A stretch of DNA of 64,000 nucleotides from Candidatus Multivoradales bacterium (lineage in GTDB: Bacteria > Acidobacteriota > Thermoanaerobaculia > Multivoradales > JAHEKO01): contig CBDCXM010000008.1 in NCBI GenBank assembly GCA_965223855.1, forward strand, positions 224,001 to 288,000, in the 5' to 3' direction. Below, piece by piece: positions 17,988 to 64,000 of this stretch. Each line of letters opens with the position of its first letter. Position 1 is the first letter of the stretch. A model generated the notes under the pieces. The model ran no database searches. It had not been told where the DNA came from and was given only the letters and a program-made list of their open reading frames with translations. The position numbers and the translations under genes are program-made.

Positions 17988-19178
<1,191 letters not shown>

Positions 19179-24674: not shown

Positions 24675-26333
24675 GTGGCCCGCCCCGCTCCAATCCAGGC
24701 CTCGATCCAGGCCTCAATCCACGCTGTCCTGATGTTGACGGCGGCTGCCGTCGGCTGCTCCCGCCCCCTCCCCGAGGCCTTCGTCGACGTCTCGCGAGAG
24801 ACCGGCCTCGAGTTCGTCCACGACAACGGCAGCATCGGTGAGCGCTACTTCAGCGAAGTCGTCGGACCGGGTGCCGCCTGGACGGACTACGACGGTGACG
24901 GCGATCTCGACCTCTATCTGGTGCAGGGGGGCAGCCTCGACCCGGCCGGCGATCCGGCCGAACGCCCGTCGGACGTGCTCCTGCGCAACGACGTCACGGC
25001 GGGCGGCCCGCGCTGGGTGGACGTCTCGGCCAGAGCCGGCATCGTCGAGCACGGCTACGGCATGGGGATCGCCGCCGGCGACATCGACGGCGACGGCGAC
25101 GTCGATCTCTATGTCACCAACTTCGGCCGCAACCTCCTGTGGAGCAATGCCGGCGACGGGACGTTCGTCGATACGACCACTCCGACACTCGCGGAGCCGC
25201 GCTGGACGACGAGTGCCGCCTTCCTGGACTACGACGGCGACGGCGACCTCGACCTCTTCGCCGCCAACTACGTCGAATACCGCCTCGCGCAGCACCGGCC
25301 GTGCCTCAACGCGGCCGGAGCGATCGAGTACTGCGGTCCCGCGAGTTTCCCGCCGGAGACCGACCGCTTGTGGCGCAACGACGGCACAGGCGGCTTCGAG
25401 GACGTCACCGGCCAGGCCGGTCTTCTGGGTCATGCCGGCAGCGGGCTCGGTGTCGTCAGCGCCGACTTCGACGGCAACGGCCTGCCCGACCTCTACGTGG
25501 CCAACGACCTGATGCCGAACTTCCTGTGGATCAACCAGGGGGACGGCTCCTTTCGTGAGGACGCGCTGCTCGCCGGCTGCGCGGTCAACGAGCAGGGCGC
25601 TCCGGAGGCGAGCATGGGGGTGGCGGTCGCCGACTTCGACCGGGACGGCGACGAGGACCTCTTCATGACCCACCTCGACACCGAGACCAACACCGCCTAC
25701 GCCAACGACCGCGGTCTCTTCACCGACGTTTCCAACGAGTGGGGGCTGACGGTCCCTTCGCTCGGGCTCACCGGCTTCGGCACAGTCGCTCTCGACTACG
25801 ACAGCGACGGCTGGATCGACCTCGCCGCGGCCAACGGTGCGGTCAAGACGCTCCCGGACCAGCGTGCTGCCGGCGATCCGCTGCCGCTGCGGGAGCCCAA
25901 CCTGTTGCTGCGGAACGAAGCCGGAAGCTTCGTCGACCGCACCGAGACGGCACCGGTGCTGCTCGAGAAAGACGTGAGCCGCGGACTCGCGGCGGGAGAC
26001 TTCGACAACGACGGCGATACGGACCTGGTTGTGCTCAACAACGGCGGCCGAGCGATGCTCCTGCGCAACGAGGCCAAAGACGGCTTCGACTGGGCCGGAG
26101 TCGAGCTGATCCCGGGCGCCGGTGCCCCCGCGCTGGGAGCCGAAGTCCGGCGTTCCGGCGAAGATCTATCGATCGCCACCGTGCGCAGCGCCGCGAGCTA
26201 CTGCTCGGCCCAGGACACCCGTCTGCGGCTGGGTGGGCAGATCTCCGGCACCGAGCTGACCCTGGGACGGACCGGCCGCCGGCCGTTGCGTCTCTCGCAG
26301 ACACCTGCGCACCGCTACCTGAGATTCCCGTGA
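24675..26333 (+). CDS. CRTAC1-family FG-GAP/VCBS repeat lipoprotein with ASPIC/UnbV C-terminus
   Basis: Lipobox AVGC; repeated D-[YF]-D-x-D-G-D-x-D-L motifs; C-terminal SYCSAQDTRL. TAGAAT at 24663-24668 suggests a leaderless start. Confidence 0.85.
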   Translation: MARPAPIQASIQASIHAVLMLTAAAVGCSRPLPEAFVDVSRETGLEFVHDNGSIGERYFSEVVGPGAAWTDYDGDGDLDLYLVQGGSLDPAGDPAERPSDVLLRNDVTAGGPRWVDVSARAGIVEHGYGMGIAAGDIDGDGDVDLYVTNFGRNLLWSNAGDGTFVDTTTPTLAEPRWTTSAAFLDYDGDGDLDLFAANYVEYRLAQHRPCLNAAGAIEYCGPASFPPETDRLWRNDGTGGFEDVTGQAGLLGHAGSGLGVVSADFDGNGLPDLYVANDLMPNFLWINQGDGSFREDALLAGCAVNEQGAPEASMGVAVADFDRDGDEDLFMTHLDTETNTAYANDRGLFTDVSNEWGLTVPSLGLTGFGTVALDYDSDGWIDLAAANGAVKTLPDQRAAGDPLPLREPNLLLRNEAGSFVDRTETAPVLLEKDVSRGLAAGDFDNDGDTDLVVLNNGGRAMLLRNEAKDGFDWAGVELIPGAGAPALGAEVRRSGEDLSIATVRSAASYCSAQDTRLRLGGQISGTELTLGRTGRRPLRLSQTPAHRYLRFP

Positions 26334-28045
26334 ACTCGCGCACTCTAGTTGCCGGGGCAGTCCTCGCTGCCACTCTCGGCTGCGCAGATGAAGGCGTGGA
26401 TTCGCTCCGCCTCCCGGTCGGCATCGCAGAGGCGGAAGCGGGAATCCGGGACGATCTCGAGCGCGGTCACGCCGCCGCGATCGCCGCCCTCGGGGATCCC
26501 GAGAACGACGACGTGAATCGCGCGGCGAGCGTCGGTGACTACGGGGTCTCACTCCTGGCCCACGGCTTCTTCCAGCAGGCGACAGAGAGCTTCGCGCTCG
26601 CACGACAGCTCGACCCCGGTGAGTTTCAGTGGCACTATTTCTTCGGGCATGCCGCGCGCCGCACCGGCGACGCCGAAGCGGCGACCGAAGGCTTCACCGC
26701 CGCCCTCGCGGCCGACCCCTTCAGCCTGCCTGCGAAGCTGTGGCGGGCCGAAACTCTCCTCCATCGCGAGCGACTCGACGAGGCCGAGGAAGACTTCCGG
26801 AGGGCCCTCGAACAGGATCCGTACTGCGGCCAGGCATTCACCGGCCTCGGCAAGATCGAACTGTCTCGCGGCGACTTCGAGAGAGCCGAGCCGCTGCTGC
26901 GCCAGGCGCTCGAACATCAGCCCAGGTCGCCGCGCGCCCGCTACAGCCTGGCACTCGCTCTTCGAGGCCAGGGGCGCACCGAGGAGGCGCGACGCGAGTT
27001 CTCACGACTCGAGGGCGAGAACTACTCGCTCACGCTGACCTGCTTCGAGGATCCCTGGATCACCCGGATGCGGCGACGCCAGACCGGAACGCGGAGCCAT
27101 CAGGATCGGGCCATGCAGGCGATGGAGCGAGGCCTGCCCGCCACGGCACTCGTCGAGTTGCAGGCGGCGGTCAGGGCCAATCCGAACCGCTACCCCGCGC
27201 GCGTCGACATCGCCGGCCTCCTCGCCCGGCTGGGCCGGATCGAAGAGGCGAAAGAGGAATTGCGGACGCTCCTCGAAGCCAGACCCGAGTACCCGGCGGC
27301 TCTCCTCATGCTCGCGCAGCTCTCGCTCGACGAAGGTGACCTCGAAAGCGCAGAGCGGTTCGCGACTCGCGCGATCGCTGCTGATCCCGAGGCCGAGGCG
27401 CACCACGAAGTCTCCGGTTCGATCGCGCTGGCGCGGCAAGACTGGCACGCGGCTCTGGAGGCGTTCGATCGTTCCCTCACGCTCGACCCCGCCTCCCGCC
27501 GCTCCCTGCTCGGGAAGGCAGAGGCGGTCTACCGGATCCACGGGGCGGACGCGGCCTACGAGGGGCTCCTGACGGCACAGCGAGGCCTCGGAGCCGGAGC
27601 CCGAAGTCTCGCAGCCTCGGGCCGCCTCGATGACTCGGGCCTCGGGAACTCGCACCAGGCCGGCTCGAGCACCGGAGACGAGCTGTCGAGCGCCCTCGCT
27701 CTTCTGGCCCTCGAAGCCGATCGCCCGCTCGCCGAAGCCCTCGATCATGCGCGACGAGGCAACCGCGAGCCGTCGGTGATCGGGTCCGCCGTACTGGCGA
27801 AGGTCCTCTCGCTCGCCGGCGACCTGAGCGCTGCGCTCGAGTGGCAGCGGCGCGCGCTCGACTCGGTGCCCGGAGGTCTGCGGTTCGCAGACCAGCGGCA
27901 ACGACTCGTCGAAGACCTCGCCCGCCTCGAGGCCGGTCGCGCGACCGGGATAGAGTTCTCCCTGGCCTCGTTCGGTGAACCGCTGGGACTGACCCGATCG
28001 AGCTCGCCTGCCCGGCCGGACGGAGGCCGGGAAGACGGCTCGTAG
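26330..28045 (+). CDS. Tetratricopeptide-repeat lipoprotein
   Basis: GTG overlapping the upstream stop; lipobox TLGC; multiple TPR units (A...F..AL..DP). Confidence 0.85.
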   Translation: MNSRTLVAGAVLAATLGCADEGVDSLRLPVGIAEAEAGIRDDLERGHAAAIAALGDPENDDVNRAASVGDYGVSLLAHGFFQQATESFALARQLDPGEFQWHYFFGHAARRTGDAEAATEGFTAALAADPFSLPAKLWRAETLLHRERLDEAEEDFRRALEQDPYCGQAFTGLGKIELSRGDFERAEPLLRQALEHQPRSPRARYSLALALRGQGRTEEARREFSRLEGENYSLTLTCFEDPWITRMRRRQTGTRSHQDRAMQAMERGLPATALVELQAAVRANPNRYPARVDIAGLLARLGRIEEAKEELRTLLEARPEYPAALLMLAQLSLDEGDLESAERFATRAIAADPEAEAHHEVSGSIALARQDWHAALEAFDRSLTLDPASRRSLLGKAEAVYRIHGADAAYEGLLTAQRGLGAGARSLAASGRLDDSGLGNSHQAGSSTGDELSSALALLALEADRPLAEALDHARRGNREPSVIGSAVLAKVLSLAGDLSAALEWQRRALDSVPGGLRFADQRQRLVEDLARLEAGRATGIEFSLASFGEPLGLTRSSSPARPDGGREDGS

Positions 28046-28077: not shown

Positions 28078-29925
28078 ATGACAGGAACCATGCCCGTTCG
28101 CCGCTCACTCCTTCACCTGCTGCCCGCCATCCTCGTCGGCTGCGCCGCTCCGTCCCCCGAAGGCGAGGTGCTCGCACGATATCCGGGCGGAGAGATCACG
28201 ACCTGGGAGTACCAGGCTCTCACCCGCCAGCGAGGCTCCCTCTCCCCCGAAGAGGGCCTCGCCCAGGCGGCGATGACCGAGCAGCTCGCGGCTGCCGCTC
28301 GGGAGGCCGGCCTCGATCGGGAGCCGGGCATCGCCCTTCAGCTTCACCGCATCGAAGACCAACCCTGGGTGGAGGCGTTGGAGGGGCGTGTCAGGAGCGA
28401 TCACCAGCCGACCGAGGAAGCGGTCCTCGAGTATCTCGACGAGCGCCGGCACCAGCTCGAGAAGCCCGAGAAGCGCCGGCTGTCGAATCTCTTCAAGCGC
28501 GTTCCGGAGGACAGCACCCCGGAGGAACGTGAGGCGGTAAGGAGCCTCATGCAGGCGCTACGGGACCGGATCATCGCCGGAGAGGAGTTCTCGGCTCTCG
28601 CGCGTGCCGAGTCCGAGGGCGTCAACAGGCATCGTGGTGGTCGGATGGGGGCGGTGCCGAAGGGCCAGTTGAGGAAGGACGTCGAGGACGTCGCATTCGC
28701 ACTCGAGGTCGGCGAGGTCAGCCCGGTGCTGCCGATCCCTCAGGGATTCGTCCTGCTCACCTGCACCGAGGTCCTCCCGCCGACGACCCTTTCGGAGGAG
28801 GAGGCGATCGAGCGGATCCGGGCGGCACTCGGCCGTTGGAACTTCGAGGACGCGATCGAGGCACTCCGCGCCGAGCTGCTGGAGGCTGGTGCGACGCTGG
28901 CCGAACCGAAGGAGATCGAGGCGGCGGATGCCGGCACGGTGATCGCGACCGTCGAAGGACGAGAGGTCACCTACGGCGCCGTCGAGTCGATGCTCAGCTC
29001 CCACGGTGGCGCCACCCGACCAGCGACGCAGGACGGACCGACGCCGTTCCGCGTGCTGGCGGCGCTCGAACGCTACGCCTACCAGCGGCTCGCCGCGCAG
29101 CGGGCTCGCGAGATGGGGCTGGAGCCGTCGGCCGCCGATCTTGTCCGTTCCGAGGCCGCCGCCGATCGTATGCTGGCTCTCGCCGAACTGACCCGACGCG
29201 CGAGCGACTCCGGAATCGAGGCGACAGAGGCGGAGGCCCTCGCCTACTACGAGAGCCAGCCGCGACGGTTCGCAGTGCCGGAGCGCCACGATGTGAGCGT
29301 GATCCAGCTCCGTCTCGACAGCACCGAGCCGGAGTTCCTGCGAGACCGCACGGAGCTGGCCTGGGAGGCGGTGCGCCGGATTCGCTCCGGGCGTGCGAGT
29401 TTCGCCCAGGTCGCGCGGGAGATCTCCGAGCATCCCTCAGCCGAGGACGGCGGGCAGCTCGGTCTCAAGCCGCGCCGCTGGGCGGCCGGACTGGGGCCCA
29501 ACGTCCTGGCCGCTTTCGACCCGCTGGGTCCCGGTGACATCACCGACCCGATTCGTCAGGACCACCTCTGGATCCTCGGCAAGGGGCATTCGGAGCCCGC
29601 CTACACCGTTGCGTGGGCGGAGGCCAGGGAGGCCGCACGCGCGAGCGTCGTCGAGGCCAAGCTGCAGCAGGCGAGCGCCCGACTCGAAGCCGAGCTGCGC
29701 AGTGAAGTGCTCGCGGAGCTCGAAATCGTGCAGCTGCCCGAGACGCTGCAGCTCCCCGCTCGGCGACGACCCGGGCAATTCCGGCGCGCGTCCGGGCAGA
29801 CAGAAGAGGGCGCGCCGGTCCGGTCAGGACGGCGGTCAGGACGGCGGTCAGGACGACAGTGCGGCCGGTATCACCGAGCCGCAGCCGGAATCCCCCAGCG
29901 CCTCAGGCGGCCGGTAGGCCGATGA
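28078..29925 (+). CDS. Tandem parvulin (PpiC) peptidyl-prolyl isomerase/foldase lipoprotein
   Basis: Lipobox LVGC; two parvulin motifs FSALARAESE..GGRMG and FAQVAREISEHPSAEDGGQLG. Confidence 0.85.
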   Translation: MTGTMPVRRSLLHLLPAILVGCAAPSPEGEVLARYPGGEITTWEYQALTRQRGSLSPEEGLAQAAMTEQLAAAAREAGLDREPGIALQLHRIEDQPWVEALEGRVRSDHQPTEEAVLEYLDERRHQLEKPEKRRLSNLFKRVPEDSTPEEREAVRSLMQALRDRIIAGEEFSALARAESEGVNRHRGGRMGAVPKGQLRKDVEDVAFALEVGEVSPVLPIPQGFVLLTCTEVLPPTTLSEEEAIERIRAALGRWNFEDAIEALRAELLEAGATLAEPKEIEAADAGTVIATVEGREVTYGAVESMLSSHGGATRPATQDGPTPFRVLAALERYAYQRLAAQRAREMGLEPSAADLVRSEAAADRMLALAELTRRASDSGIEATEAEALAYYESQPRRFAVPERHDVSVIQLRLDSTEPEFLRDRTELAWEAVRRIRSGRASFAQVAREISEHPSAEDGGQLGLKPRRWAAGLGPNVLAAFDPLGPGDITDPIRQDHLWILGKGHSEPAYTVAWAEAREAARASVVEAKLQQASARLEAELRSEVLAELEIVQLPETLQLPARRRPGQFRRASGQTEEGAPVRSGRRSGRRSGRQCGRYHRAAAGIPQRLRRPVGR

Positions 29926-31789
29926 TCTCCCGCAGGTAGGCGTCGAGCGCGGCTTCGTGAAGCTCGAAGCCGTTGGCCGCGAGAAGTTCACTCGAGAACT
30001 CCTCGAACAGGGACTCTCCATGGGCCTCCAGGTACGCCTCGACCACCCTCTCCTCGACCTCGCCGAGAGCCGGCACCTCGAGCGGCCCCCGCTCGATCAC
30101 TTCGAACAGCTCGACTTCCCGCCCGTTCGAGTGAGGGTCGGAGAACTCACCGGCACCGACCGCGGCGAGGGAGCGACGGATGCCTCCCCCCTCCTCCACC
30201 AGCCGCTCTAGGGACGACCATTGCGGCGGCTCGACCGTTGCCCCGACCTCGGCGGCGAGGTCGGTCAGGGAGAGAGATCCGGACCTGAGTGCCGGAAGGG
30301 CCCTCACGAGATCCGTCATGATCCGACCGGCGTCGGCGTCGATCGGTCTGGCGAGCCGCCGGTAGCGCAACCGGGGCGACCCGGCAAACCTGGCCGCCTC
30401 GCGACCGAAGAACGCCTCGAGGGCAGCCCGGTCCTCCAGCACCCTGGTCTCGAGCTCCCGGGTGAGACCGAGATTGTAGAGCAGGGCGTTCCGTGATTCC
30501 TCGAGCACCGGCAGGAACTCTTCCTCCTCGAGAATACCGGCCTCGGCCGCCAGCACCGCCACCCGCTCCCTCCTCGCGCGGCCCACCAGCCACTCGTGAG
30601 CCCGCTCCGGCTGCGCGACGTCCAGGACCGATCCGGCGCCCTCGAGCTCCTCGGCGAGCTCCTCCGCAGTCAGCACCAGCCCGCCGACTCTCAGCACCAC
30701 CGCCATCGGATCACCGCCGACGAGCAACGCCGCCAGTTCCTCGGAGCTCGGCACGAAGTCGGCCGGCCCCGTCGGTCGGGACTCCACGAATTGCTGGACC
30801 GCCGCCTCCTGCCTCTGCTGCCAGAGCCGCTGTCGCACCGCGGAGCGAGACGTCTCGAGATTGGCCGGTTGCGCCTCGACGATCCGAGCCGCATAGAAGA
30901 GGTGCGCACCCGAAGCGGTCGTCATGACGTCGCTGGGGACAGCCTCCTCCAGGCCGAAGACGATTCGATCGAGATTCGGAGAAAGCTGGCCGGGAACCAC
31001 CCAACCGAGAGCGCCGTCACCCCGCTTGAGCTGGGACTCGGAGTGCTCGCGAGCGAGCAACGGAAACGGCGTTCCCGCGACAGCCCGATCTCGCAACTCC
31101 TGCGCGCGCACCAAGAGTTGAGCCCTGGACTCCCCCGGGCGGGGGCGCAGGAACAGGTGATAGACCTCCCGCCTCTCGGGCCGGGCGAAGGACTCGCGGT
31201 GCTCCTCGAAGTAGGACTCGACCTCCTCTGCCGACGGCGCCTCGACCTCCACCTCGCGGCGCAGATAGGTCGAGACCGCCAGCTGAGTTCGGGTCGCCTC
31301 CCATGTGGAAGCGTTCTCGGGGATCTCCAGCAGGCGGTCCTCACGACCCGATCGCACGACGATGTCCCTCACGGCGATTCGCCGCACCATCTCACCGACG
31401 AAGTCCCGCAACTCGCCGGGCGCCGAAGGTCGTGAATCCTCGGGAACCGCCAGCAGCGCCTGATCGAGGTCCGCCGCACTCACCGCACCGCCCCGATAGG
31501 AAGCCACTCCTTCCGGATCGCCGCCGCGCGGCGCACAGCCCCCCACCGCGAGGCCCAGGAGAGCCGCGGCGAAGGCGGAGGCGGTCCGTGTGCCGAGACG
31601 ATGGCGCCAGGAACCAGGGCGCGACGCACTGGGACGCAAGGTCTCGAGGCTCAAGGTGCTGCCCTTCCGTACACACCTGGCCTTCCGGGTACTGGCCTTC
31701 GGGGTACAGGCACTCCAGGCACTGGCACTCCAGGCACTGGCACTCCAGGCACTAGGACGCAACAGCCCGATCGAACGCGACTCGCGCAT
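29903..31789 (-). CDS. Tandem parvulin peptidyl-prolyl isomerase/foldase lipoprotein
   Basis: Lipobox VGGC; FPLLAREHSES..GDGALGWV; second degenerate unit. Start uncertain (ATG 31789 or TTG 31654). Confidence 0.8.
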   Translation of the reverse strand: MRESRSIGLLRPSAWSASAWSASAWSACTPKASTRKARCVRKGSTLSLETLRPSASRPGSWRHRLGTRTASAFAAALLGLAVGGCAPRGGDPEGVASYRGGAVSAADLDQALLAVPEDSRPSAPGELRDFVGEMVRRIAVRDIVVRSGREDRLLEIPENASTWEATRTQLAVSTYLRREVEVEAPSAEEVESYFEEHRESFARPERREVYHLFLRPRPGESRAQLLVRAQELRDRAVAGTPFPLLAREHSESQLKRGDGALGWVVPGQLSPNLDRIVFGLEEAVPSDVMTTASGAHLFYAARIVEAQPANLETSRSAVRQRLWQQRQEAAVQQFVESRPTGPADFVPSSEELAALLVGGDPMAVVLRVGGLVLTAEELAEELEGAGSVLDVAQPERAHEWLVGRARRERVAVLAAEAGILEEEEFLPVLEESRNALLYNLGLTRELETRVLEDRAALEAFFGREAARFAGSPRLRYRRLARPIDADAGRIMTDLVRALPALRSGSLSLTDLAAEVGATVEPPQWSSLERLVEEGGGIRRSLAAVGAGEFSDPHSNGREVELFEVIERGPLEVPALGEVEERVVEAYLEAHGESLFEEFSSELLAANGFELHEAALDAYLREIIGLPAA

Positions 31790-33887
31790 CTCGACTCTCC
31801 TCCGACTCGGGAGCGACGCGCTCGAGTTCCTCGAGCTCCCGTCTCGCACCGTCCAGATCGTTCAACTGCAGCCGGGTCACGACGATCGCCAGCCGCGCGG
31901 CCAGGTAGCCGGGGGCGATCTCCGCCGCACGCAGGAAGCGCGGAAGCGCCGCCTGCACGTCGCCCTGCTCGAGCAGAAAGGCGCCGTAGTTGTAGTGGCC
32001 CTTCGGATAGAAGGGGTCTCCTTCGAGCGCAGCCGCGAAGTGGCTGCGAGCCTCTTCCGTCCGCCCGGCCATCGCGTGCTGGATGGCCAGATCCACTCGC
32101 GCCTCGACATGCAACGGATCCGCTTCGACCGCGGCCTCGAGGGCCTCGAGGGTCGCGGCGACGTCTCCGATGGCCCGGTGGGCCGAGGCGAGGTGGTATC
32201 TGGCACCCGCAGACCCGTCGAGCTCCACCGCCTTCTCCAGGAACTCCATCGCCTCCTCCGGACGTCCCGTGGCCACGAGTCTCCCTCCCACCGCCAGAAG
32301 AACCCCGACCGACGCTTCGCGGCCGCGCGGAGCCTCGACGAGCTGCCGCAGCTCGGCGACCGCCTCGTCGAGATCGCCGGCGAGCATCGCCGCCTGCACG
32401 AGGAGCTCGCGATAGAAGGCGTTCCCGGGATCGCGCTCCAGCAGTTCGATCGCGACCTGCCTTGCGGCGCCCCCCCGACCTGCCGTCAGCAGGTTGCGCG
32501 CTTCACTCGACAGGTTGATGTCGACCACCCGGTCCTGAGGGGCGATCCCACCCTCCAGAAGCGTCTCTACGATCGGCTCGCTGTCGCCGCTGCCGCTCAG
32601 GTAGCCGAGCGCCATCAACTTGGCGCGCGTTTCGTCGTCGATCGGCTGTGTCGAGGCCGCCGTCGCCGCAGCCGTCTCCTCGATCAGCCTCTCCAGCGCC
32701 TGCCGCATCTCGGAGGCGTCCGCCTGGCGAGCGGCATTGAGGTCGTCGAGTTCGTTCGGGTCGGCACCCAGGTCGTAGAGCTCCGGCCGTGGTCCGTAGA
32801 CGTACTTGAGGTCACCCTGGTAGAGCGAGCGCAGCTCCCCCCAACCGTGCGAGAGCCGAGGCGACAGCGTCTCGGCGTAGAACTGCCGATTGGCGGGCAC
32901 CCCCGGCCCGCCCGAGAGATACCCAGCAAGGCTGTGACCGTGCAGCGACTCGGGAACCTCGAGCCCGAGTGCGTCGAGCACCGTCGGCGTAACGTCGACC
33001 CCGGCGACGAGGTCGGCCGTGCGGAGCGGTTCCATCCCGCCGGGAGGCCGGATCACCATCGGTACCCGCAGAGTGGTCTCGTAGTTGAGAAGCGAGTGGG
33101 TCGATTCGTTGTGCTCGCCCAGCCCCTCCCCGTGGTCCGCAGTCATGACGACGAGGGTGTCGTCGTAGACGCCCAGCTCGCGCAGCTTGTCGAGTAGCTG
33201 GCCGAGCGCTTCGTCCGTGTAGGCGATCTCCGCCAGGTACGGGTCGTCCGCGTAGAGCTCATCGTACGGAGCGGGGGCGTTCCAGGGTCGGTGGGGGTCG
33301 TAGTAGTGGACCCAGGCGAAGAACGGCTGCGATGCATGTTCCGCAAGCCAGGGGAGGATCGCCTCGTTCGTGCGCCCGGCCTGGCGCTCCTCGAAATAGA
33401 GGCTCGGTCGGCGCGGGCGGCGACCGAGGAAGTCCTCGTCCTGGCGGCGCAGATCGTCGTCGTAGAAGTCGAATCCCTGATCGAGGTTGAAGCGCTCGAC
33501 CAACGGGAAGCCGCTGATCGAGGCAGCGGTGGCGTACCCCACCTCCTTCAAACGTTCGGCGAGGGTCACGACCTCGTCCGAGAGGATGAACAGGCCGTTG
33601 TCGCGGATCCCGTGCCCCGTCGGGTAGAGCCCGGTCAGGATCGTCGTGTGTGACGGCAGGGTGAGCGGGATCGAGGCGTGCGCGTTCGTGAACGCGACCC
33701 CTTCGGCCGCCAGGCCATCGACCGCCGGCGTCGCGACCCGGTCGTTGCCGAACACCCCGATGTGATCGGCCCGCGTCGTATCGAACGTGACGATCAGGAC
33801 GTTGGCACGCCGCTCCTGTCCGCAGCCGACGAGGACCGTCAGCGCGAACAGGAGGGCGACCGGCAGTCTGCGCCGCCGGCCCGGCAT
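31752..33887 (-). CDS. Sulfatase-fold (alkaline phosphatase superfamily) hydrolase/transferase with C-terminal TPRs, lipoprotein
   Basis: Lipobox LVGC; DTTRADH, PLTLPSH, HYYDPH, ADHGE, LMALGY; TPRs. Confidence 0.85.
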   Translation of the reverse strand: MPGRRRRLPVALLFALTVLVGCGQERRANVLIVTFDTTRADHIGVFGNDRVATPAVDGLAAEGVAFTNAHASIPLTLPSHTTILTGLYPTGHGIRDNGLFILSDEVVTLAERLKEVGYATAASISGFPLVERFNLDQGFDFYDDDLRRQDEDFLGRRPRRPSLYFEERQAGRTNEAILPWLAEHASQPFFAWVHYYDPHRPWNAPAPYDELYADDPYLAEIAYTDEALGQLLDKLRELGVYDDTLVVMTADHGEGLGEHNESTHSLLNYETTLRVPMVIRPPGGMEPLRTADLVAGVDVTPTVLDALGLEVPESLHGHSLAGYLSGGPGVPANRQFYAETLSPRLSHGWGELRSLYQGDLKYVYGPRPELYDLGADPNELDDLNAARQADASEMRQALERLIEETAAATAASTQPIDDETRAKLMALGYLSGSGDSEPIVETLLEGGIAPQDRVVDINLSSEARNLLTAGRGGAARQVAIELLERDPGNAFYRELLVQAAMLAGDLDEAVAELRQLVEAPRGREASVGVLLAVGGRLVATGRPEEAMEFLEKAVELDGSAGARYHLASAHRAIGDVAATLEALEAAVEADPLHVEARVDLAIQHAMAGRTEEARSHFAAALEGDPFYPKGHYNYGAFLLEQGDVQAALPRFLRAAEIAPGYLAARLAIVVTRLQLNDLDGARRELEELERVAPESEESRDARVAFDRAVAS

Positions 33888-45698: not shown

Positions 45699-46889
<1,191 letters not shown>

Positions 46890-49896: not shown

Positions 49897-50640
49897 GTGA
49901 CGGAGCCAGACATCGTCGAAAGAGGGGAGCCTCATCGACGCTTCCCCCAACGCCCTCACTTCTCGGTCGGCATCCCCGTCTACAACGAAGAGGAGCTGCT
50001 GGAGGTGCATACCGACCGGCTGCTGCGGTTTCTGGAGTCGCTCGAGCGACCGTTCGAGGTCCTCCTCGGCAGCAACGGCTCGACCGACCGCACCGTTGAG
50101 ATCGCGCAGCGCCTCGCGGTCGGAGATCCCCGCATCGACGCGTTCTCGATCGACCATCGAGCGCCCGGAGCCGCCTTCCGCGGCTTCATCCACCGCGCAA
50201 GCTCGCCGCTGCTGATCTCGCTCGACATGGATCTGTCGATCGACCTCGACTTCGTGCCGCGTGCCCTCGAACTACTCGAGCACTGCGACCTCGTCGTCGG
50301 AGCGAAGCAGACGGGGGAGCAGAAGCGCTCGTGGCTGCGGAGAACGGGAAGCGGCACGTTCATCGCCGTCGCCAGGCGATGCGGTCTGCCGTTCCAGGAT
50401 TACTCGATGGCCGCCAAGGGCTATCGGATCGCAGCCCTCGAGCCCCACCTCGAGACGCTGGTCGACGGCACCGCCTACGTGCTCTACGCGATCGCCGCAG
50501 TCCAGGCCGCCGGCGGCGAGGTGGTCGAGATCCCCGTCGACTGCGACGACCGGCGCCGCAGCCGTTTCAGCCTGCCTCGAGAAGCGTTGCACAAGTTCTT
50601 CCACCTCGCGCGGTGGATGTGGAGCCGGCCGCGCTCGTGA
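49897..50640 (+). CDS. GT2 glycosyltransferase (polyprenyl-phosphate sugar synthase-like)
   Basis: IPVYNEE, NGSTDRT, DMD motif, EIPV..RRSRF; GTG start with RBS. Confidence 0.85.
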   Translation: MTEPDIVERGEPHRRFPQRPHFSVGIPVYNEEELLEVHTDRLLRFLESLERPFEVLLGSNGSTDRTVEIAQRLAVGDPRIDAFSIDHRAPGAAFRGFIHRASSPLLISLDMDLSIDLDFVPRALELLEHCDLVVGAKQTGEQKRSWLRRTGSGTFIAVARRCGLPFQDYSMAAKGYRIAALEPHLETLVDGTAYVLYAIAAVQAAGGEVVEIPVDCDDRRRSRFSLPREALHKFFHLARWMWSRPRS

Positions 50641-52119: not shown

Positions 52120-52124
52120 CGCCC

Positions 52125-52303
52125 GACACCGCTTCGTGTCAGTCGACTGAGAACGCTAGCTAGTTCTTCTCACGCCGCTCCGGCCTGGTGGGTCGTAGGT
52201 TGCCGAAGATCCGAGGCCTACGGTCGCGAGCACCACAGGCGTAGCCGTAGCTACGTCGAGGAGCACAGCGACCGGAGAACGAAGTAGATTCAGTGACATA
52301 CGG
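52125..52303. other. Palindrome-rich intergenic element (REP/MITE-like or structured RNA)
   Basis: TCAGTCGACTGA palindrome; CGGTCGC..GCGACCG stem enclosing a CGTAGC-CGTA-GCTACG hairpin; lies between convergent genes. Confidence 0.35.
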
Positions 52304-54848: not shown

Positions 54849-54969
54849 CCCTTGGGCGAGCCTCTGCCCCGGGACCGGCTTTCCGGGCGTGGGCTTGCCC
54901 AGACTAGGCTTGCCCGGCATTGGCGTCGAAGGGGTGACTCCCTGGCTCAAGGCGACCCCGTGCCGCCGC

Positions 54970-58582: not shown

Positions 58583-60235
58583 ATGCCTCGAAGCCTTACC
58601 AGCACGGCCGCCATCCTCGGCGCCCTCGCCCTGTCGACGAGCTTGTCGAACGCAACCGATGAGGCAGGCTCCTCGGTGTCGGACGACCTGCGCTGCCACG
58701 TCCTCGCGCCCCTCGTGGCCGGCGATGGCCTACCCGAAGTCGAAGCTTCGAAGCCCACCGCTGAACCGGGCCCCGAAGACCTGCTGCGCACCGTACGCAG
58801 CCGGCTCGTCGACTACGAGCTCGCCGAGGAAGCCAGGCGATCGGGCTTCGACGCGACGCCGGAGGTGGCCGAACTCCTTTCCCGTGTGAGAAGACGACAC
58901 CTCGTAGAATCAGCGGAAGCCTCCTTCGTCTCCGAGCGGACGATCGGCGACGACGAGATCCAGACCTACTTCGCCGCCCATCCGCAACGCTTCTCGATCG
59001 ACGAGCGCATCGCCACGCGCTTCCTGATGCTCAAGCTGCCGCCCGAGGCGTCGGCCGAGGCCGTCGACGCGACGCGGCGTCGTCTGGAGGACCTGAGGGA
59101 GAGAATCGTCGCCGGAGAGAGATTCACCGACCTCGCCCGGGAGCACAGCGAGGCCGAGAACGCACGGCGCGGCGGGGCGGTTCAGGCGAGCCCTCGCGGC
59201 ACCCTGCTCGAAGAGTACGAGGCGGCCGCCTGGGAGCTCCAGCCGGGTGAGGTGAGCGACATCGTCGAGCTTCCCGGAGGGCTGGCGTTGATCCTGCTCG
59301 ACGCTCGATTCCCGGCGCGCACCCTCGAGCTCGACGCGGCTCGGCCGCGGATCGAAGCGGAGCTGCGCGATCTGGAGCGGGAGCGACGCCGAAGCGAAGC
59401 GCTCGCGGAGGCCGAACGTCGCTGGCCCCTCCGACGGGACGACGAGGCGAAGACGGTCACCCTCGGAGAGCGCACGCTGACCTTCGAGGAGCTCGGCGTC
59501 GGCGGCCGGCCGCCGCGCTTCGAGGAACGGCTTCAGGCGGCGATCGACGAGCAGCGCCTCGCCCGCTGGGCGCTCGAGTCGGGGGTTGCGGACACGCCGG
59601 AGACCAAAGCACGCTGGAGCAGCGTCGCCGACCGCCTGCTGGCGGGCGAGCTCCTGCGCGCCTCCGCGCGACGCTCGGAGCTCGCTGCAGAGCCGGCCGA
59701 CGAGGCGCGGCTGCGGGCGATGTACGAGCGCCGCGGCGCGAGCCTCGCCGGTCCCGAGCTGCGGGAGTTCGAGGTCGCCTTCGTCGCGGCCGCGAGCGGT
59801 CGGCTGCGCCCCGCTCATGCCGAGGCGACGCGAATCGCCACCGCCTGGCGGGAAGGCTTCCCTCCTCCGCCAGAGACCCTCGAGCGCTGGGGTCCGCTGC
59901 CGAGGAAGCTCCTCGGCAACCGCGTCTCACCCGCCGTCGCCGCTGCCGCCTTCGGGCTGTCAGAGGGCGAAATCAGCCCCGTGCTCCGCATGGAGCGCTA
60001 CGTCCCCGAGCGGGCCCGCTTCGAGCCCGAGGGGTTCATCGTCCTGCGGCTCGTGGCGAAGACGAGTCCCCACCCCCCGACCTACGAGGAGGCGCGACCG
60101 GGGCTCGAGGACGAGCTGCTCGCCGGGCGGATCGACGACAGGGTGCGGCGGCTGCGCGACGAGCGCGGGGCCGCGATCGCGGTGGAAGCGATCCTCGCCG
60201 GTTGCGGGATCACCCTTCCGGCCGGGTTGCGGTAG
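58583..60235 (+). CDS. Exported tandem parvulin peptidyl-prolyl isomerase/foldase
   Basis: Signal peptide; FTDLAREHSEAENARRGG, AWELQPGEVSDIV; second unit AFGLSEGEISPV. Confidence 0.85.
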   Translation: MPRSLTSTAAILGALALSTSLSNATDEAGSSVSDDLRCHVLAPLVAGDGLPEVEASKPTAEPGPEDLLRTVRSRLVDYELAEEARRSGFDATPEVAELLSRVRRRHLVESAEASFVSERTIGDDEIQTYFAAHPQRFSIDERIATRFLMLKLPPEASAEAVDATRRRLEDLRERIVAGERFTDLAREHSEAENARRGGAVQASPRGTLLEEYEAAAWELQPGEVSDIVELPGGLALILLDARFPARTLELDAARPRIEAELRDLERERRRSEALAEAERRWPLRRDDEAKTVTLGERTLTFEELGVGGRPPRFEERLQAAIDEQRLARWALESGVADTPETKARWSSVADRLLAGELLRASARRSELAAEPADEARLRAMYERRGASLAGPELREFEVAFVAAASGRLRPAHAEATRIATAWREGFPPPPETLERWGPLPRKLLGNRVSPAVAAAAFGLSEGEISPVLRMERYVPERARFEPEGFIVLRLVAKTSPHPPTYEEARPGLEDELLAGRIDDRVRRLRDERGAAIAVEAILAGCGITLPAGLR

Positions 60236-62360
60236 ACGACGCCTCGAGCTCGGCGAGCAGACGCTTCGCCTCGGCGATCGCCGACTCCCGCCGCGCCTCG
60301 CCCGCCAGTCGGGTGAGCAGTTCCTTCGCCCTCGCCGTCTCGCCGAGTTCAATCCACGCGGAGGCGAGCCCGAGCGTGGCCGCCGGATACGGCTGCTGGT
60401 AGCGCAGGGCGCGCTCGAAAGCGTCGGCCGCCGGCGACGGCCTGCCGGAGCGCATCTCGAGCAGGCCGAGGTTGTAGTGCGCCCGAGCCGAGAAGGGGGC
60501 CACCTCGAGAGAACGCACGAGGGCCTCGCGAGCCTCGTCGAGTCGATCGAGACGGCCGAGAGCGATGCCGAGGCCGATCCAGCTGTCGCGGTGGCTCGGG
60601 TCGATCTCCAGCGTCCGGCGGTAGGCCTCGACGGCGGTCTCCTGGCGCCCCTCCCGGGACTCGAGATCGGCGGTGAGGAACGCCGCCGTCAGGTGAGAGG
60701 GGGCCACCTGCCGCGCCGCGGAGAGCAGGTCGCGTGCCGAGTCGGCCTCACCGCGGTCATACTCGAGCTGGGCGAGCGCCACGAGAGTCTCGGGATCTTC
60801 CGGATCCGCAGCCTGGGCCTGCCGGAAGAGCGAAAACGCGGCTTCGGAGCGGCCCAGCTTGCGCTCGAGATTGGCGAGGCTGCCGAGGAAGGTCGGGTTG
60901 GAGGGATCGAGCGGCACAAGGACGTTCGAGTAGATCTCGGCCGCCTCCCGCAGTTGCCCCCGGCCGGCGAGCGCGTTGGCGAGGTAGTAGTCAGCGAGGA
61001 AGGTGATCCCCTCGTTGGGGCTCCTGAGTCCGGTCGGTTCGCGGGGAGTGAGCTCGGCGTCGCTCGCCGAGCCGCCCGTCAGGTAGCCGAGCGCCTCGAG
61101 CCGGCGGCGCACGTCGTCGGACATCTCTCCCGCGGCCTCGGAGCTGTCGGTCGCCTCCTCCTCGACCCAGCGGAAGAGCAGCCCCTCCATCGCCGCGGCC
61201 CGTTCCGGCTCGCGATCGACGAGGTTGTACAGCTCGTCAGGATCCGACTGGAGGTCGTAGAGCTCCGGTCTCGGCGCGCGGATGTACTTCCAGCCGTCGG
61301 CCCGCACTCCGAAGAGCGACTCCCAGCCGAACGAGAATCTCGGCAGCGCGCACTCGAAGTAGGCGGGACGGCTGCCGAAGCGCCCGCTCGCGGCCTGGAG
61401 GAGGTCGCGTCCGCGAAGGTCGGACCCGCTGTCGAGGCCGCCGAGGGCGGCGAAGGTCGTGAAGATGTCGAGATGGGAGACCGGCTCCTCGATTCTCGCG
61501 GGCGCCGGTCTGCCGCCCGGTGGCTTCACCATCATCGGCACCCGCAGCGTCGCGTCGTAGGCGAGCACCCCGTGCGTGGCCTCGCCGTGCTGACCGAAGC
61601 CCTCGCCGTGATCGGCCGTCACGAGGATCGCGGTGCGCTCCCACTCGCCCCGCTCCCGGATTCGCTCGAAGAGCCGGGCGATCTGCGAGTCCATGAAGGC
61701 GATCTCACCGTCGTAGGGGCTCTGCGGAAAGCGTTGATCGAAGGGTCGCGGTGGGGCGTAGCGCTGGTGCGGATCGTAGTAGTGCACCCAGAGGAAGTAG
61801 GGCTCGCGGCGATCCCCGTCGAGCCACTCGAGCGCCCGATCGGTCGTCTGGTCGGCCGGACGGTCGGTCACCATCTGGTTGTAGATCCTCGCGTCCCGAA
61901 GCTTGCTCTCGCTCCACCGGTCGGTGAAGGCGTCGTCGTAGAGGTCGAATCCGCGATCGAGGCCGAATCGGGAGTCGAGAACGAAGCCGCTGACGAACGC
62001 CGCGGTCTCGAAGCCGCGCTCGCTCAGGAGAACCGGAAGCGTCTCCAGATCGTCCGGCACGACGAATCTGCCGTTGTCCCTCACCCCATGAGCGAGCGGC
62101 GCGAGACCCGAGAGCATCGAAGTGTGCGCCGGGAGCGTGACGGGCACCATCGAGAAGGCGTTGTCGAAGACGAGGCTCTCGGCGCCCAGAGCATCGAGGG
62201 TCGGCGACGTGCCTTCGGGGTAGCCGTAAAGACCGAGGCGATCCGCGCGGGTCGTGTCGAGCGTGACGAGGACGAGGTTGGGCGGCGCTTCCGAGCCGCA
62301 GCCGACGAGCGCAGAGACGCCCAGCGCAACGAGCGCCGCCCGGCGAGTGAGAGCGCTCAT
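60210..62360 (-). CDS. Sulfatase-fold hydrolase/transferase with C-terminal TPRs, lipoprotein (paralog of 31752-33887)
   Basis: Lipobox LVGC; DTTRAD, PVTLPAH, HYYDPH, ADHGE, LEALGY; TPRs; ATGA overlap with the upstream gene. Confidence 0.85.
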   Translation of the reverse strand: MSALTRRAALVALGVSALVGCGSEAPPNLVLVTLDTTRADRLGLYGYPEGTSPTLDALGAESLVFDNAFSMVPVTLPAHTSMLSGLAPLAHGVRDNGRFVVPDDLETLPVLLSERGFETAAFVSGFVLDSRFGLDRGFDLYDDAFTDRWSESKLRDARIYNQMVTDRPADQTTDRALEWLDGDRREPYFLWVHYYDPHQRYAPPRPFDQRFPQSPYDGEIAFMDSQIARLFERIRERGEWERTAILVTADHGEGFGQHGEATHGVLAYDATLRVPMMVKPPGGRPAPARIEEPVSHLDIFTTFAALGGLDSGSDLRGRDLLQAASGRFGSRPAYFECALPRFSFGWESLFGVRADGWKYIRAPRPELYDLQSDPDELYNLVDREPERAAAMEGLLFRWVEEEATDSSEAAGEMSDDVRRRLEALGYLTGGSASDAELTPREPTGLRSPNEGITFLADYYLANALAGRGQLREAAEIYSNVLVPLDPSNPTFLGSLANLERKLGRSEAAFSLFRQAQAADPEDPETLVALAQLEYDRGEADSARDLLSAARQVAPSHLTAAFLTADLESREGRQETAVEAYRRTLEIDPSHRDSWIGLGIALGRLDRLDEAREALVRSLEVAPFSARAHYNLGLLEMRSGRPSPAADAFERALRYQQPYPAATLGLASAWIELGETARAKELLTRLAGEARRESAIAEAKRLLAELEASSTATRPEG

Positions 62361-64000
62361 CGCGCGTCGAGCTCGCGGACGTAGGAGTCGATGGCGCCGG
62401 TGTGAAGTTCGAACTCCTCCTCCTCCAGCAGCCGCGCAGCGACTTCCCGATCGAGGCGTCGCACCTCTTCCGCGGCCAGCGTCGAGATGACGTCGTCCCG
62501 CGCGTCGATCCAGGAGCGGGCCTGCGGCTCTGTCCGGCCGAAGAGCTTCACCAGGGCGTAGCGAGGGTGGGGCCCATCCTGGAAGAGCATCGGCTCGGAA
62601 ACCTCGTCGAGTTCCAGCCCGAGGGCGGCCGTCGTCGCTCGCGTGCCGACGAGCGTCCGGACCCTCGGCAGTGGAAGCATGCCGAGCCTGCCGCCGTCGT
62701 CGGCGCTGCGGTGGTCCGACAACGTCTGCGCCAGCGTCTCGAACGACTCGCCCGACAACAGGCGAGCACGGGCCTGTCTCGCCCGCTCGAGAGCGGCCCG
62801 GCGCCCAGGCCGGCCTTCGCCGTCGACGAGCAGCAGGCCGAGATCGAGTTCGAGCTCGGACCGGAAGCGGTCGCGATGCTCCTCGAAGTAGGCCTTCAGC
62901 TCCCCTTCGGGCCGGGTCTCGACCGACCGTCTCCGCTCCGCACGCCACTGCCGGTCGATGAGGAGGCGTTCGAGCGCTGCCTGCTGCAACTTCCCGAACG
63001 GCTCGGCCAGGGTCGGGTCGGCGTCGAGCGCCTCGCGGGTGAGGAGCACCGCCTCGCCGAACTGCCGCAGCAGCTCACCGGGCTGCGGCAGCCAGAGCAG
63101 CGGCTCGCCGTCCGGAGACAGCCCCTCGAGTTCCGGTGCCGTGAAGCTCTCCTCGCCGACGATGAGAGAGGGCCGACCGGCTGCGGTGGGGTCGAGAAGC
63201 GCCTCACGATCGACGAGGATGGGCGAGACCTCTGCCAGTCCGGCCAGCACCTCTCGGCCGCACTGCTCGAAGGCGGCGAGCCGAAGCGCCTGCTCGAGCT
63301 CCTGGCGTACCTCCTCGAGGGCCGGCCGCACGGTGGTGCCCGACGCCTCTCGCAGAAGCAGGTGCATTCCGTTGCCGGTCTCGACGACGCCGCTCACTTC
63401 TCCGTCGCCGAGCGCCCACGCCGCTTCGAGGACCGTCTCGTCCACCGGTGCGGACCTCGACAGACGCCCGATCAGTCCGCCCTCCTTCGCCGTTTCCGAC
63501 TCGGAATGAAGGCGAGCCAGCTCGAGGAAGCTCGCACCGGCTTCGATCTCCCGGTCGAGATCTTCGAGCCGCTCGCGAGCCGCGGCTCGCTCTTGCGGAT
63601 CGGCACCGGCGCGCCTGTAGATATGCCGCAGGAGGATCCACTCCTGTCGGGGCTCGGGATGGCGCTTGCGCCACGCCGCCTCGATCTGCTCCTCGGGCAC
63701 CTCGACGTCGCCGCACCTCCGCGCCATGTACCCTCTGCCGATCTCGCGACTGGCCCCGAAGCGGGTTCTCAGGCGATCCGCCGCGGTCACGCTCTGGGAC
63801 TGTTCCGCCCGGCGGCTGACGATCTCCTCCACCGCGAGCTCGCGCACCCGCTCGGAGACCCAGTCCGTCAGCGAGGAGGCCTCGGCAGCTTGACGCTCTG
63901 GGGCGCTCGCCGCACGCACGCCGGCGTCGAGAGCCTCGACGGTGATCCGGCCTCCCCGCCACGAAGCGAGGGCGCCGGTCTCGTCAGGCGGCTCGCAGCC
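62357..64000 (-). CDS. Tandem parvulin foldase lipoprotein, 5' end outside the window
   Basis: Frame is open to the edge (GCEPPDETGALASWRGGRIT); FLELARLHSESETAKEGGLIG and FETLAQTLSDHRSADDGGRLG. Confidence 0.85.
   Translation of the reverse strand, partial: GCEPPDETGALASWRGGRITVEALDAGVRAASAPERQAAEASSLTDWVSERVRELAVEEIVSRRAEQSQSVTAADRLRTRFGASREIGRGYMARRCGDVEVPEEQIEAAWRKRHPEPRQEWILLRHIYRRAGADPQERAAARERLEDLDREIEAGASFLELARLHSESETAKEGGLIGRLSRSAPVDETVLEAAWALGDGEVSGVVETGNGMHLLLREASGTTVRPALEEVRQELEQALRLAAFEQCGREVLAGLAEVSPILVDREALLDPTAAGRPSLIVGEESFTAPELEGLSPDGEPLLWLPQPGELLRQFGEAVLLTREALDADPTLAEPFGKLQQAALERLLIDRQWRAERRRSVETRPEGELKAYFEEHRDRFRSELELDLGLLLVDGEGRPGRRAALERARQARARLLSGESFETLAQTLSDHRSADDGGRLGMLPLPRVRTLVGTRATTAALGLELDEVSEPMLFQDGPHPRYALVKLFGRTEPQARSWIDARDDVISTLAAEEVRRLDREVAARLLEEEEFELHTGAIDSYVRELDAR

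Follow-up and report, generated by a model that had tools for sequence, protein, structure and literature searches.

Tandem-parvulin foldases and a TPR-fused, sulfatase-fold lipoprotein in a recurrent gene cassette with a new tailed partner

Two tandem-parvulin foldases and a lipid-anchored, TPR-fused enzyme of the PF00884 (sulfatase) fold are encoded together at four places in the genome studied here, and the same trio is kept across phyla, mostly in the company of a small secreted protein with a conserved C-terminal tail. These genes very probably make up a real functional unit, and we infer an envelope folding-plus-modification module in which the tailed protein would be a client or a partner. 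What emerges is a compact envelope system of four genes, shared between phyla, whose function is undescribed and which includes an undescribed protein family. It is also directly testable, since the module is single-copy in the cultured and fully sequenced Marinicella sp. W31 and is present in Wenzhouxiangella as well.

The cassette in its genome

Two of the four foldase/enzyme cassettes lie in the window (the whole 64,000-nucleotide stretch that was analysed), and a genome search placed a third at C8:377557-382915 and a fourth at C9:195476-203386, both outside it. The first-pass annotation had reported the two window copies, and both are present as it described: in each, a plus-strand foldase gene converges on a minus-strand foldase/enzyme pair, with 3' overlaps of 23 and 26 nucleotides (given there as about 25), and the two minus-strand genes stand in opposite order in the two copies. 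They are diverged, old paralogues, as had also been proposed, with 35% identity between the enzymes across 690 aa and about 30-33% between the foldases in alignments that cover part of their length. What the annotation understated is how often the cassette recurs.

In copy 1, the type A foldase (28078..29925, +; Pfam Rotamase, E 3.7e-25, two stretches) is a lipoprotein with the lipobox ILVGC, and consists of two SurA/PrsA-like units, each with a helical chaperone part and a parvulin domain; its last ~65 aa form an Arg-rich extension that its homologues do not have. The enzyme (31752..33887, -; motif T-L-P-S-H) is a lipoprotein (lipobox LVGC) with a PF00884 domain at aa 29-308 (Sulfatase, E 1.2e-47) and C-terminal TPRs at aa ~538-700, and downstream of its gene, in the same direction, lies that of the type B foldase (29903..31654, -; Pfam Rotamase_2, E 1.1e-11), likewise a lipoprotein (AVGGC). 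The ORF of the latter is listed as 29903-31849 (-), and its true start is likely a TTG at 31654 or 31639, to judge from their position just before the lipobox. Adjoining copy 1 are an FG-GAP β-propeller protein (24675..26333, +; FG-GAP_3, E 7.2e-46) and a TPR-only protein (25739..28045, +; TPR families, E down to 5e-30); the listed start of the latter overlaps the propeller gene and the true one is probably later, and a homologue is found in five other loci (cluster 3 of an all-against-all comparison).

In copy 2, the convergent foldase (58583..60235, +; Rotamase_2, E 3.8e-24, two stretches) has a plain signal-like N-terminus without a lipobox. The other foldase, a lipoprotein encoded upstream of the enzyme (62357..64000, -; Rotamase, E 2.6e-23, two stretches), continues past the end of the window, where the genome provides an ATG 57 nt further on and the lipobox AASGC. 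Between them, the enzyme (60210..62360, -; Sulfatase, E 5.7e-44, plus TPRs) carries T-L-P-A-H; its lipobox LVGC follows a Met at ORF residue 197, and the ORF as listed, to 62948, includes an upstream extension. The stop codon of the upstream foldase and the start codon of the enzyme overlap as ATGA. All the window foldases but the one at 58583 do have, after a lipobox Cys, the sequence A-x-[YW]-x-G-G-x-[IV]-[TS], as noted previously for three of the four.

A genome-wide count places this adjacency far above what the sizes of the two families would give. The 4.5-Mb genome holds 43 PF00884 matches, and 12 parvulin matches spread over 11 ORFs; eight of these 11 parvulin genes sit in the four cassettes, and eight have a PF00884 match within 4 kb, where random placement gave a mean of 0.75 and reached that value in 0 of 20,000 placements. 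By coincidence, one housekeeping PpiD-like parvulin lies 2 kb from an unrelated sulfatase.

Foldases and enzyme

The parvulin (PPIC-type) domain is found above the Pfam cut-offs in each of the four window foldases. The earlier description of them as tandem parvulins is borne out by the two Pfam parvulin stretches present in three of the four, and by profile comparison of N-terminal with C-terminal halves, which match with a probability of 99.4% in type A and 97.3% in type B. On this sequence evidence, a unit of the SurA/PrsA/PEB4 type is duplicated in tandem within each foldase; in type B the second parvulin domain is, by eye, without the conserved catalytic signature. Sequence matches are to HP0175 (over 243 aa), PEB4 and PrsA, and the model of a type B homologue from locus L009 (pLDDT 85.8) has two repeats and a helical chaperone module, with SurA, PEB4 (TM-score 0.52 on the target), HP0175 and PrsA as its top fold matches. 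Shared with SurA, PrsA, PEB4 (Cbf2) and HP0175 are helical chaperone segments on either side of a parvulin domain and the N-terminal 'A-x-[YW]-x-G-G-x-I-T' strand, and shared with PrsA in particular is lipoprotein anchoring, whereas the foldases described here duplicate the whole unit, and a single enzyme gene is accompanied by two types of them, A and B, that have diverged. PrsA, PEB4 and HP0175 form homodimers, and by analogy the tandem foldases could possibly be a fused version of such a dimer, i.e. a pseudo-dimer.

The best relatives of the enzyme among solved structures are S1 sulfatases (5g2v, an N-acetylglucosamine-6-sulfatase, E 1.7e-53), with which it shares the PF00884 fold family and the closest sequence. 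However, the TPR fusion and the lipid anchor set it apart from these formylglycine sulfatases, as does the motif itself: T-L-P-S-H or T-L-P-A-H replaces C/S-x-P-x-R in the window enzymes, at the position where 5g2v and the solved S1 sulfatases have S-G-P-S-R. D36, T76, H80, D251 and H252 are invariant: two alignments, of 12 and of 81 sequences, have the Thr and the His in every row, and likewise the Asp, the Thr and the Asp-His. The first-pass annotation had read T-L-P-x-H correctly, in what it called a sulfatase-fold/TPR lipoprotein; the motif argues against sulfatase chemistry, and a formylglycine sulfatase is improbable in spite of the fold.

Judged from its motifs, the enzyme is probably a Thr-nucleophile phosphoesterase or phosphotransferase, TPR-fused and lipid-anchored. 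The Thr-nucleophile phosphotransferases of PF00884, LtaS, EptA/MCR and OpgB, have an acid...Thr...Asp-His metal site, and the known transferases of this type take head-groups from lipids and have a membrane domain. To these (and to YejM/PbgA) the enzyme is alike in the Thr at the nucleophile position and in the acid...Thr...Asp-His arrangement, whose metal-site roles are assigned here by analogy, and it gives local NCBIfam matches to LtaS, YejM, MCR and EptA. It is unlike them in scoring far under the cut-offs (LtaS 44.5 vs 970 bits, EptA 22.6 vs 561, YejM 31.4 vs 825), in a sequence that is overall nearer to sulfatases, and in having no N-terminal multi-pass membrane domain, what lies ahead of the catalytic domain being no more than a lipoprotein signal. 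The family comprises more than 6,000 clusters, named 'arylsulfatase A-like' or 'sulfatase' at source, and all aligned members are without the sulfatase nucleophile motif; counting these genes as sulfatases in marine or soil metagenome studies is probably wrong. The host bacterium in our case is itself marine.

Conservation and the tailed partner

Conservation in other genomes, which the first-pass annotation had proposed as a check, is found across phyla: long double-parvulin genes lie within 8 kb of an enzyme relative in 17 of 79 loci, in Acidobacteriota, Gammaproteobacteria and Verrucomicrobiota (Thermoanaerobaculia, Wenzhouxiangellaceae and Marinicellaceae, with MAGs of Alcanivoracaceae, Lysobacterales and Verrucomicrobia). 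In quick-search trees, with SH-aLRT as the sole support measure, two changes suffice to place the foldase-linked label on the 112-row enzyme tree, where shuffled labels need 19.5 on average and 0 of 500 shuffles came as low, and 14 foldase-linked rows form a core clade together with one short contig (support 100). The foldase tree (40 rows) has a type A clade encoded on the opposite strand (SH-aLRT 99), which contains the 28078..29925 foldase, and a type B group, co-directional with and adjacent to the enzyme, which contains the second foldase of copy 1 and whose inner branching is as in the enzyme tree; the 58583..60235 foldase falls in a third, mixed group, and both the type B and the third group have weak support (85). 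This mirroring of the two trees fits inheritance and transfer as one unit. Translational coupling is seen in L009 too, where the enzyme gene (ending at 10157) and the foldase gene (starting at 10154) overlap as ATGA. Enzyme relatives as such occur in 112 of the 121 genomes of the class, most of them without a dedicated foldase, so the enzyme fold needs none; full-length type B foldases beside core-clade enzymes are found in three of the 121 (G000, G005 and G070).

A search beside other copies for a shared client, also suggested with the first-pass annotation, brought up a candidate. Of the 17 foldase-positive loci, 13 have next to the trio a member of a family of small secreted β-sandwich proteins ending in PVELMxFxV[D/E]-COOH, which is present in 2 of the 62 others; two of the four foldase-positive loci in which it is missing are on truncated contigs. 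Within the class, the family is found in 3 of 121 genomes, the same three as the trio, and five further genomes have exactly one copy each, adjoining the module; in G011 an enzyme-foldase pair is present and the family absent. The family is undescribed, comprises 271 representative clusters in a set of 1.84 billion proteins, and is a new fourth partner of the trio. Of its 150 best representatives, 129 retain the ten-residue tail, which contains no transmembrane segment and has no defined structure in the model of the monomer (pLDDT below 50); in that model, the protein weakly matches carbohydrate-binding and lectin-like β-sandwiches. Two fused members of the family end in a hydrophobic-basic anchor. 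Twelve ORFs of the present genome end with the tail, vs one in a shifted control; the bodies of four are unrelated to the family, and no tail-bearing gene lies near either window copy. Outside this genome the strict pattern is found only on the module's own gene, so a general role as a 'tag' is seen in one genome only.

Possible functions of the module

How might these parts work together? We picture a self-contained envelope module, inherited and horizontally transferred as one unit, in which the type A and type B foldases would hold and fold the exported tailed protein and, in this genome, also its paralogues and a few unrelated tail-carrying proteins. The lipid-anchored enzyme, with Thr in place of formylglycine, would most likely make or break phosphate rather than sulfate esters; tethered to a putative peptide-binding TPR domain, it could add or remove a phospho-group on the tailed protein, perhaps within a physical complex, with the PVELMxFxV[D/E] tail as a recognition handle. 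The TPR part matches the TPRs of OGT by sequence. OGT and TMTC are TPR-tethered protein-modifying enzymes, and Hop-EEVD and PEX5-PTS1 are pairs in which TPRs read C-terminal peptides; the likeness to the former lies in the joining of a catalytic domain to an array of TPRs, and to the latter in a candidate partner with a conserved acidic free C-terminus, tail reading by the TPR domain being a conjecture. As a whole, this mechanism (foldases plus an enzyme acting on the tailed protein) is tentative, and somewhat more apt to need revision than to stand as drawn. Should the enzyme's substrate indeed be a protein, the reaction would represent a new type of protein modification in the periplasm, one equipped with dedicated folding helpers.

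A bolder version, which we consider unlikely, has the tail as a new anchor-free C-terminal tag read by the enzyme's TPR arm, with the enzyme and two pseudo-dimeric SurA-like foldases covalently marking (by phospho-group transfer) or sorting tagged exported proteins. Were this true, diderm bacteria would have a previously unknown system of protein maturation and sorting that has spread by horizontal transfer, and that this genome has enlarged to four machines, with tagged proteins of at least five kinds.

A different division of labour, possible if rather doubtful, would make the foldases private maturases of the enzyme, which would itself act on a non-protein phosphoester (an envelope glycan, a lipid head-group or dissolved organic phosphorus), with the tailed protein as a lectin-like, substrate-binding accessory. 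Dedicated foldase-client gene pairs include PrtM-PrtP, Lif-LipA and NifM-NifH, and the cassette is alike in encoding a private foldase beside the protein it would mature. The translational coupling of enzyme and foldase genes fits this, as do the mirrored trees, with each enzyme paralogue keeping its own foldase pair, and the lectin-like matches of the tailed protein; NifM is also the best NCBIfam match of the foldases, below its cut-off (88.6 vs 168.2 bits), none of them reaching any NCBIfam equivalog cut-off. On the other hand, the many relatives of the enzyme in the class manage without such foldases, two different foldases for one enzyme would be unusual, and the conserved free C-terminal tail, with its spread to unrelated secreted proteins here, is left unexplained. 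The unit departs from those pairs, moreover, in its two foldases, its additional TPR domain and its tailed fourth member, and the client in it is a candidate.

The neighbourhood offers another, improbable reading, in which the cassette belongs, as an auxiliary part, to the nutrient-capture clusters of propeller and TPR genes in this lineage. A polymer caught by these would lose its ester groups to the enzyme, and the large FG-GAP/UnbV_ASPIC propellers would be the clients of the foldases. FG-GAP propellers, usually with an UnbV_ASPIC domain, do stand beside three of the four cassettes of this genome, where TPR genes flank them too, and occur in 11 of the 17 foldase-positive loci vs 6 of the 62 others; two foldase-less enzyme paralogues lie at or near a supercluster of 12 propellers. 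However, there is no propeller near copy 2 or in 6 of the 17 loci, only 3 of the 20 UnbV_ASPIC matches in the genome are beside cassettes, and the association with the trio is much tighter for the tailed family than for propellers.

The first-pass annotation had itself suggested folding plus modification of surface proteins or glycans, loosely analogous to PEP-CTERM loci. That the genes form a dedicated, exported or lipid-anchored unit is supported by adjacency far above chance and by its persistence across phyla, and folding plus modification we would keep as a reading; the analogy did not survive. Similarity there is: in both, genes for a PPIase and for a TPR lipoprotein accompany secreted proteins with a common C-terminal motif, there are weak matches to EpsD and PrsT, and the two fused family members have a hydrophobic-basic anchor. 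However, the scores are under the cut-offs (EpsD 36.3 vs 108.9 bits, PrsT 64-102.3 vs 312.2), the tail is without a membrane anchor, and no exosortase (PF09721) is matched in a genome that is 92.5% complete, as the annotation had already remarked for the window. PF07589 (PEP-CTERM) had no match in the genome, but the control of this search matched in no genome either, so that its result is uninformative. A variant of PEP-CTERM/exosortase exopolysaccharide-linked sorting, with EpsD-like PPIases and a PrsT-like TPR lipoprotein, is very improbable. Finally, that the adjacency is mere chance, both gene families being large and the genome rich in paralogues, is a reading for which the number of PF00884 matches and the PpiD-like coincidence could be invoked; it is refuted by the permutation, by an arrangement kept across phyla with mirrored trees, and by the label test on the enzyme tree, and its likelihood is negligible.

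Four cassettes in one genome

Both copies of the trio that had been described in the window, each comprising a PF00884 lipoprotein with TPRs (hereafter the enzyme) and two double-parvulin foldases, were recovered with every feature of the first-pass annotation: coordinates, overlaps, swapped gene order and lipobox motif. Copy 1 has the fusA/tuf genes on one side and rpoC on the other; in it, a plus-strand foldase (28078-29925) converges with a 23-nt overlap on a minus-strand foldase (29903-31849, with a probable TTG start at 31654 or 31639), next to the minus-strand enzyme (31752-33887). In copy 2, a plus-strand foldase (58583-60235) overlaps the minus-strand enzyme (60210-62360) by 26 nt, and the second foldase runs on the minus strand from 62357 to past the window end; the minus-strand pair is in the opposite order to that of copy 1, and an ATGA joins the foldase stop to the enzyme start. 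Three of the four window foldases carry a lipobox Cys followed by A-x-[YW]-x-G-G-x-[IV]-[TS].

Several smaller observations concern this region, in a window that spans C8:224001-288000 and has a G+C content of about 65-70%. Compared with the housekeeping genes on either side, the inserted stretch at 22-34 kb has a G+C content that is 3-5% higher. The rpoBC/ribosomal region, into which cassette 1 is inserted between fusA and rpoC, is bordered by two tuf (EF-Tu) genes (17988-19178 and 45699-46889) whose D2 and D3 domains score identically in Pfam. The plus-strand foldase of copy 1 has an Arg/Gly-rich C-terminal extension of ~65 aa (29730-29925), absent in homologues and running into the convergent gene, which may be genuine, a disordered tail, or may reflect an assembly error, either a missed stop or a frameshift. 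At 31709-31753, a perfect tandem repeat (15 bp x 3) takes in both the copy 1 enzyme's stop codon and the spacer that separates it from the type B foldase.

Across the genome, PF00884 matches number 43 and parvulin matches 12, the latter spread over 11 ORFs. When the six window proteins were compared with all ORFs by BLAST, two more cassettes (3 and 4) emerged, both confirmed by Pfam: one at C8:377557-382915, on the contig of the window, with foldase, enzyme and foldase on the same strand, and one on a second contig at C9:195476-203386. Together, the four cassettes contain 8 of the 11 parvulin genes; the remaining three are housekeeping genes, PpiD- or SurA-like. The adjacency of parvulin and PF00884 genes is indeed above chance expectation, as eight of the 11 parvulin genes have a PF00884 match no more than 4 kb away, against a random mean of 0.75, and none of 20,000 random placements reached eight. 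A fifth proximity (C9:696-702 kb) was rejected as a coincidence: here, a PLP enzyme separates an unrelated sulfatase from a PpiD-like housekeeping gene. The genome encodes eight full-length enzyme-TPR paralogues, and the four that have foldases are mutual best matches.

A co-inherited unit of exported proteins

We considered 79 loci with enzyme relatives, drawn from contigs of one genome per species, and found long double-parvulin genes within 8 kb of the enzyme relative in 17 of them. These foldase-positive loci come from Thermoanaerobaculia MAGs, from Wenzhouxiangella and other Wenzhouxiangellaceae, from a Marinicellaceae MAG and Marinicella sp. W31, and from MAGs of Alcanivoracaceae, Lysobacterales and Verrucomicrobia. 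In Marinicella sp. W31, the module (locus L015) is found on NZ_CP171822.1 at about 793.9-800.3 kb. In a quick-search tree of the catalytic domain, with 112 rows and SH-aLRT as the only support, foldase linkage requires two changes, compared with a mean of 19.5 after shuffling, and none of 500 shuffles went that low. Of the 15 rows in one fully supported clade, 14 are linked enzymes and the other is on a 4.9-kb contig, too short to judge.

The foldases themselves (40 rows) fall into three groups: a type A clade (support 99) of opposite-strand genes, including 28078-29925; a type B group (support 85) of adjacent co-directional genes, including 29903-31654; and a mixed third group containing both copy 2 foldases. 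Because the inner branching of the foldase tree is that of the enzyme tree, these sequence comparisons fit a trio that moved between lineages as a whole unit; a Thermoanaerobaculia MAG is the sister of Wenzhouxiangellaceae in all three trees. Within the class, an enzyme relative (E ≤ 1e-60) is present in 112 of 121 sampled genomes, and full-length type B foldases occur in only three (G000, the genome of the window, G005 and G070), each adjoining an enzyme of the core clade, whilst a further genome (G011) has a more distant enzyme-foldase pair. Two unpublished genomes (G004 and G104) are counted in these tallies; each has an enzyme relative, neither has a match to type B foldases or to the tailed family discussed below, and nothing else reported here depends on them. 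Taken together, the analysis shows that the trio is a co-inherited unit of exported proteins, in which each enzyme paralogue has its own foldase pair.

Foldases, enzyme and a tailed fourth member

Each foldase is an internal duplication of a unit made of a strand, a helical region and a parvulin domain, with the N- and C-terminal halves recognising each other in type A (99.4% probability, E 2.6e-21) and in type B (97.3%, E 2.4e-11), whose second parvulin no longer shows the usual signature. The half-units match HP0175, PEB4/Cbf2 and PrsA in sequence, and a model of one type B protein (locus L009, pLDDT 85.8) has two complete repeats, with SurA, PEB4, HP0175 and PrsA as its top fold matches.

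Among solved structures, the nearest sequence relatives of the enzyme are S1 sulfatases. However, where these carry S/C-x-P-x-R, the enzyme has T-L-P-S-H, and Asp36, Thr76, His80 and Asp251-His252 are invariant in the aligned enzymes. We take this pattern to be that of the Thr-nucleophile phosphoryl-transfer enzymes of the alkaline-phosphatase superfamily; judged by its motifs, it is not that of a formylglycine sulfatase. The enzyme bears a lipoprotein signal and no membrane domain, and its C-terminal 250 residues form the TPRs. The enzyme-TPR family exceeds 6,000 clusters at 90% identity, many of them labelled 'arylsulfatase A-like' by their sources.

An all-against-all comparison of neighbours brought out a fourth member, a protein of 200-300 aa directly adjoining the trio. 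It has a cleavable signal peptide and is modelled (pLDDT 69) as a short helix, a linker and a beta-sandwich, followed by an unstructured C-terminus, PVELMxFxV[D/E]. On the helix, [ML]-[TSNP]-x-x-[QE]-R recurs (columns ~60-110 of our alignment), a motif resembling the LTxxQ of CpxP/Spy-type periplasmic proteins. None of 15 members had a meaningful Pfam match, even at E up to 1, NCBIfam returned none, and the Atlas offered, apart from one DUF7451 lead, nothing but 'hypothetical protein' clusters. The Foldseek matches of the pLDDT-69 model were all weak, to jelly-roll, capsid and CBM folds. The module includes an undescribed protein family. This tailed family occurs in 13 of the 17 foldase-positive loci versus 2 of the 62 others, leaving 60 loci with neither tailed family nor foldases. 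In the class sample, it is found in 3 of 121 genomes, namely G000, G005 and G070, and five other module-bearing genomes have exactly one copy each, beside the module. Together, this shows that the tailed secreted protein tracks the trio almost perfectly. Among 1.84 billion proteins, the family numbers 271 representatives at E ≤ 0.001, and in 129 of the best 150 the tail lies within the last 18 residues; in a few long members, its position runs on into DUF11 repeats and a hydrophobic anchor.

In the genome of the window, 12 ORFs end in the tail, compared with one when a control window is set 40 residues further upstream, and 4 of the 12 match the family in the tail only. A family member lies upstream of cassette 3, and downstream of cassette 4 is a 197-aa protein with the same tail on an unrelated body; neither cassette inside the window has a tail-bearing neighbour. 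No partner recurs across the neighbourhoods of the 10 dispersed tail-bearing genes. This is the only genome in which a general tag role is seen, as a strict tail-plus-stop DNA pattern in the five other module-bearing genomes occurred only on the module's own gene, in two of them. One of the tail-bearing genes adjoins a DUF11 protein.

Possible roles and neighbouring genes

We tentatively posit a line of folding plus modification, in which the tailed protein would be chaperoned by the SurA-like pseudo-dimer foldases and would gain or lose a phospho-group through the TPR-tethered Thr-type enzyme, and the tail would serve as a handle. A complex prediction for the L009 enzyme (aa 24-720) and its tailed neighbour (aa 22-263), with alignments as input and without controls, scored 0.00 and speaks neither for nor against this. 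The main rival, in which the enzyme is itself what the foldases mature and the small tailed protein is a lectin-like accessory, seems somewhat less likely. A link to propeller/TPR capture clusters is less likely still, although FG-GAP/UnbV_ASPIC propellers and TPR-only proteins flank three of the four own cassettes and occur at 11 of the 17 foldase-positive loci versus 6 of the 62 others. The suggested analogy to PEP-CTERM loci did not hold, with scores below the family cut-offs and no exosortase match in the genome. For the module as a whole, the nearest known kinds are dedicated foldase-client modules and TPR-tethered enzymes. In the portion of the literature covered by our search, neither the trio nor Thr-type sulfatase-TPR fusions nor bacterial CRTAC1/TPR clusters were described.

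Other neighbours recur in gammaproteobacterial loci and flank none of the four own cassettes: a fused MFS/spermidine-synthase (NCBIfam NF037959, ~1,030-1,060 aa; L007:10101-13238, L011:3804-6899, L017:9982-13038 and L052:13565-16747), and Peptidase_C25 (gingipain/PorU-family) with a five-DUF11-repeat protein (L005:10240-15373, L015:13353-18111, L011:3-2129, L052:17101-17700 and L085:8860-11103). Given this absence, the latter two were rejected as core members; together with the DUF11 neighbour of one tail-bearing gene and the DUF11 repeats of the long family members, their association may hint at strand donation, or attachment, to DUF11 surface proteins.

The window also encodes three large membrane proteins of the glycosyltransferase-C type, one with PMT_2/PMT directly adjoining cassette 1 (22504-24612, minus strand), one with DUF2079 (50331-52163, plus) and one with PTPS_related and a C-terminal TPR (52305-55070, minus), which, with the TPR-tethered enzyme, hint at periplasmic protein glycosylation or modification. 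A type ISP restriction-modification gene (Type_ISP_C and N6_Mtase; L003:2560-5940, C8:290560-293940) lies 2.4 kb past the window end. Finally, a Ser/Thr protein kinase gene (47439-49838, plus), also found near the module elsewhere (L009:1621-3039 and L010:3347-4564), possibly has a regulatory link to it.
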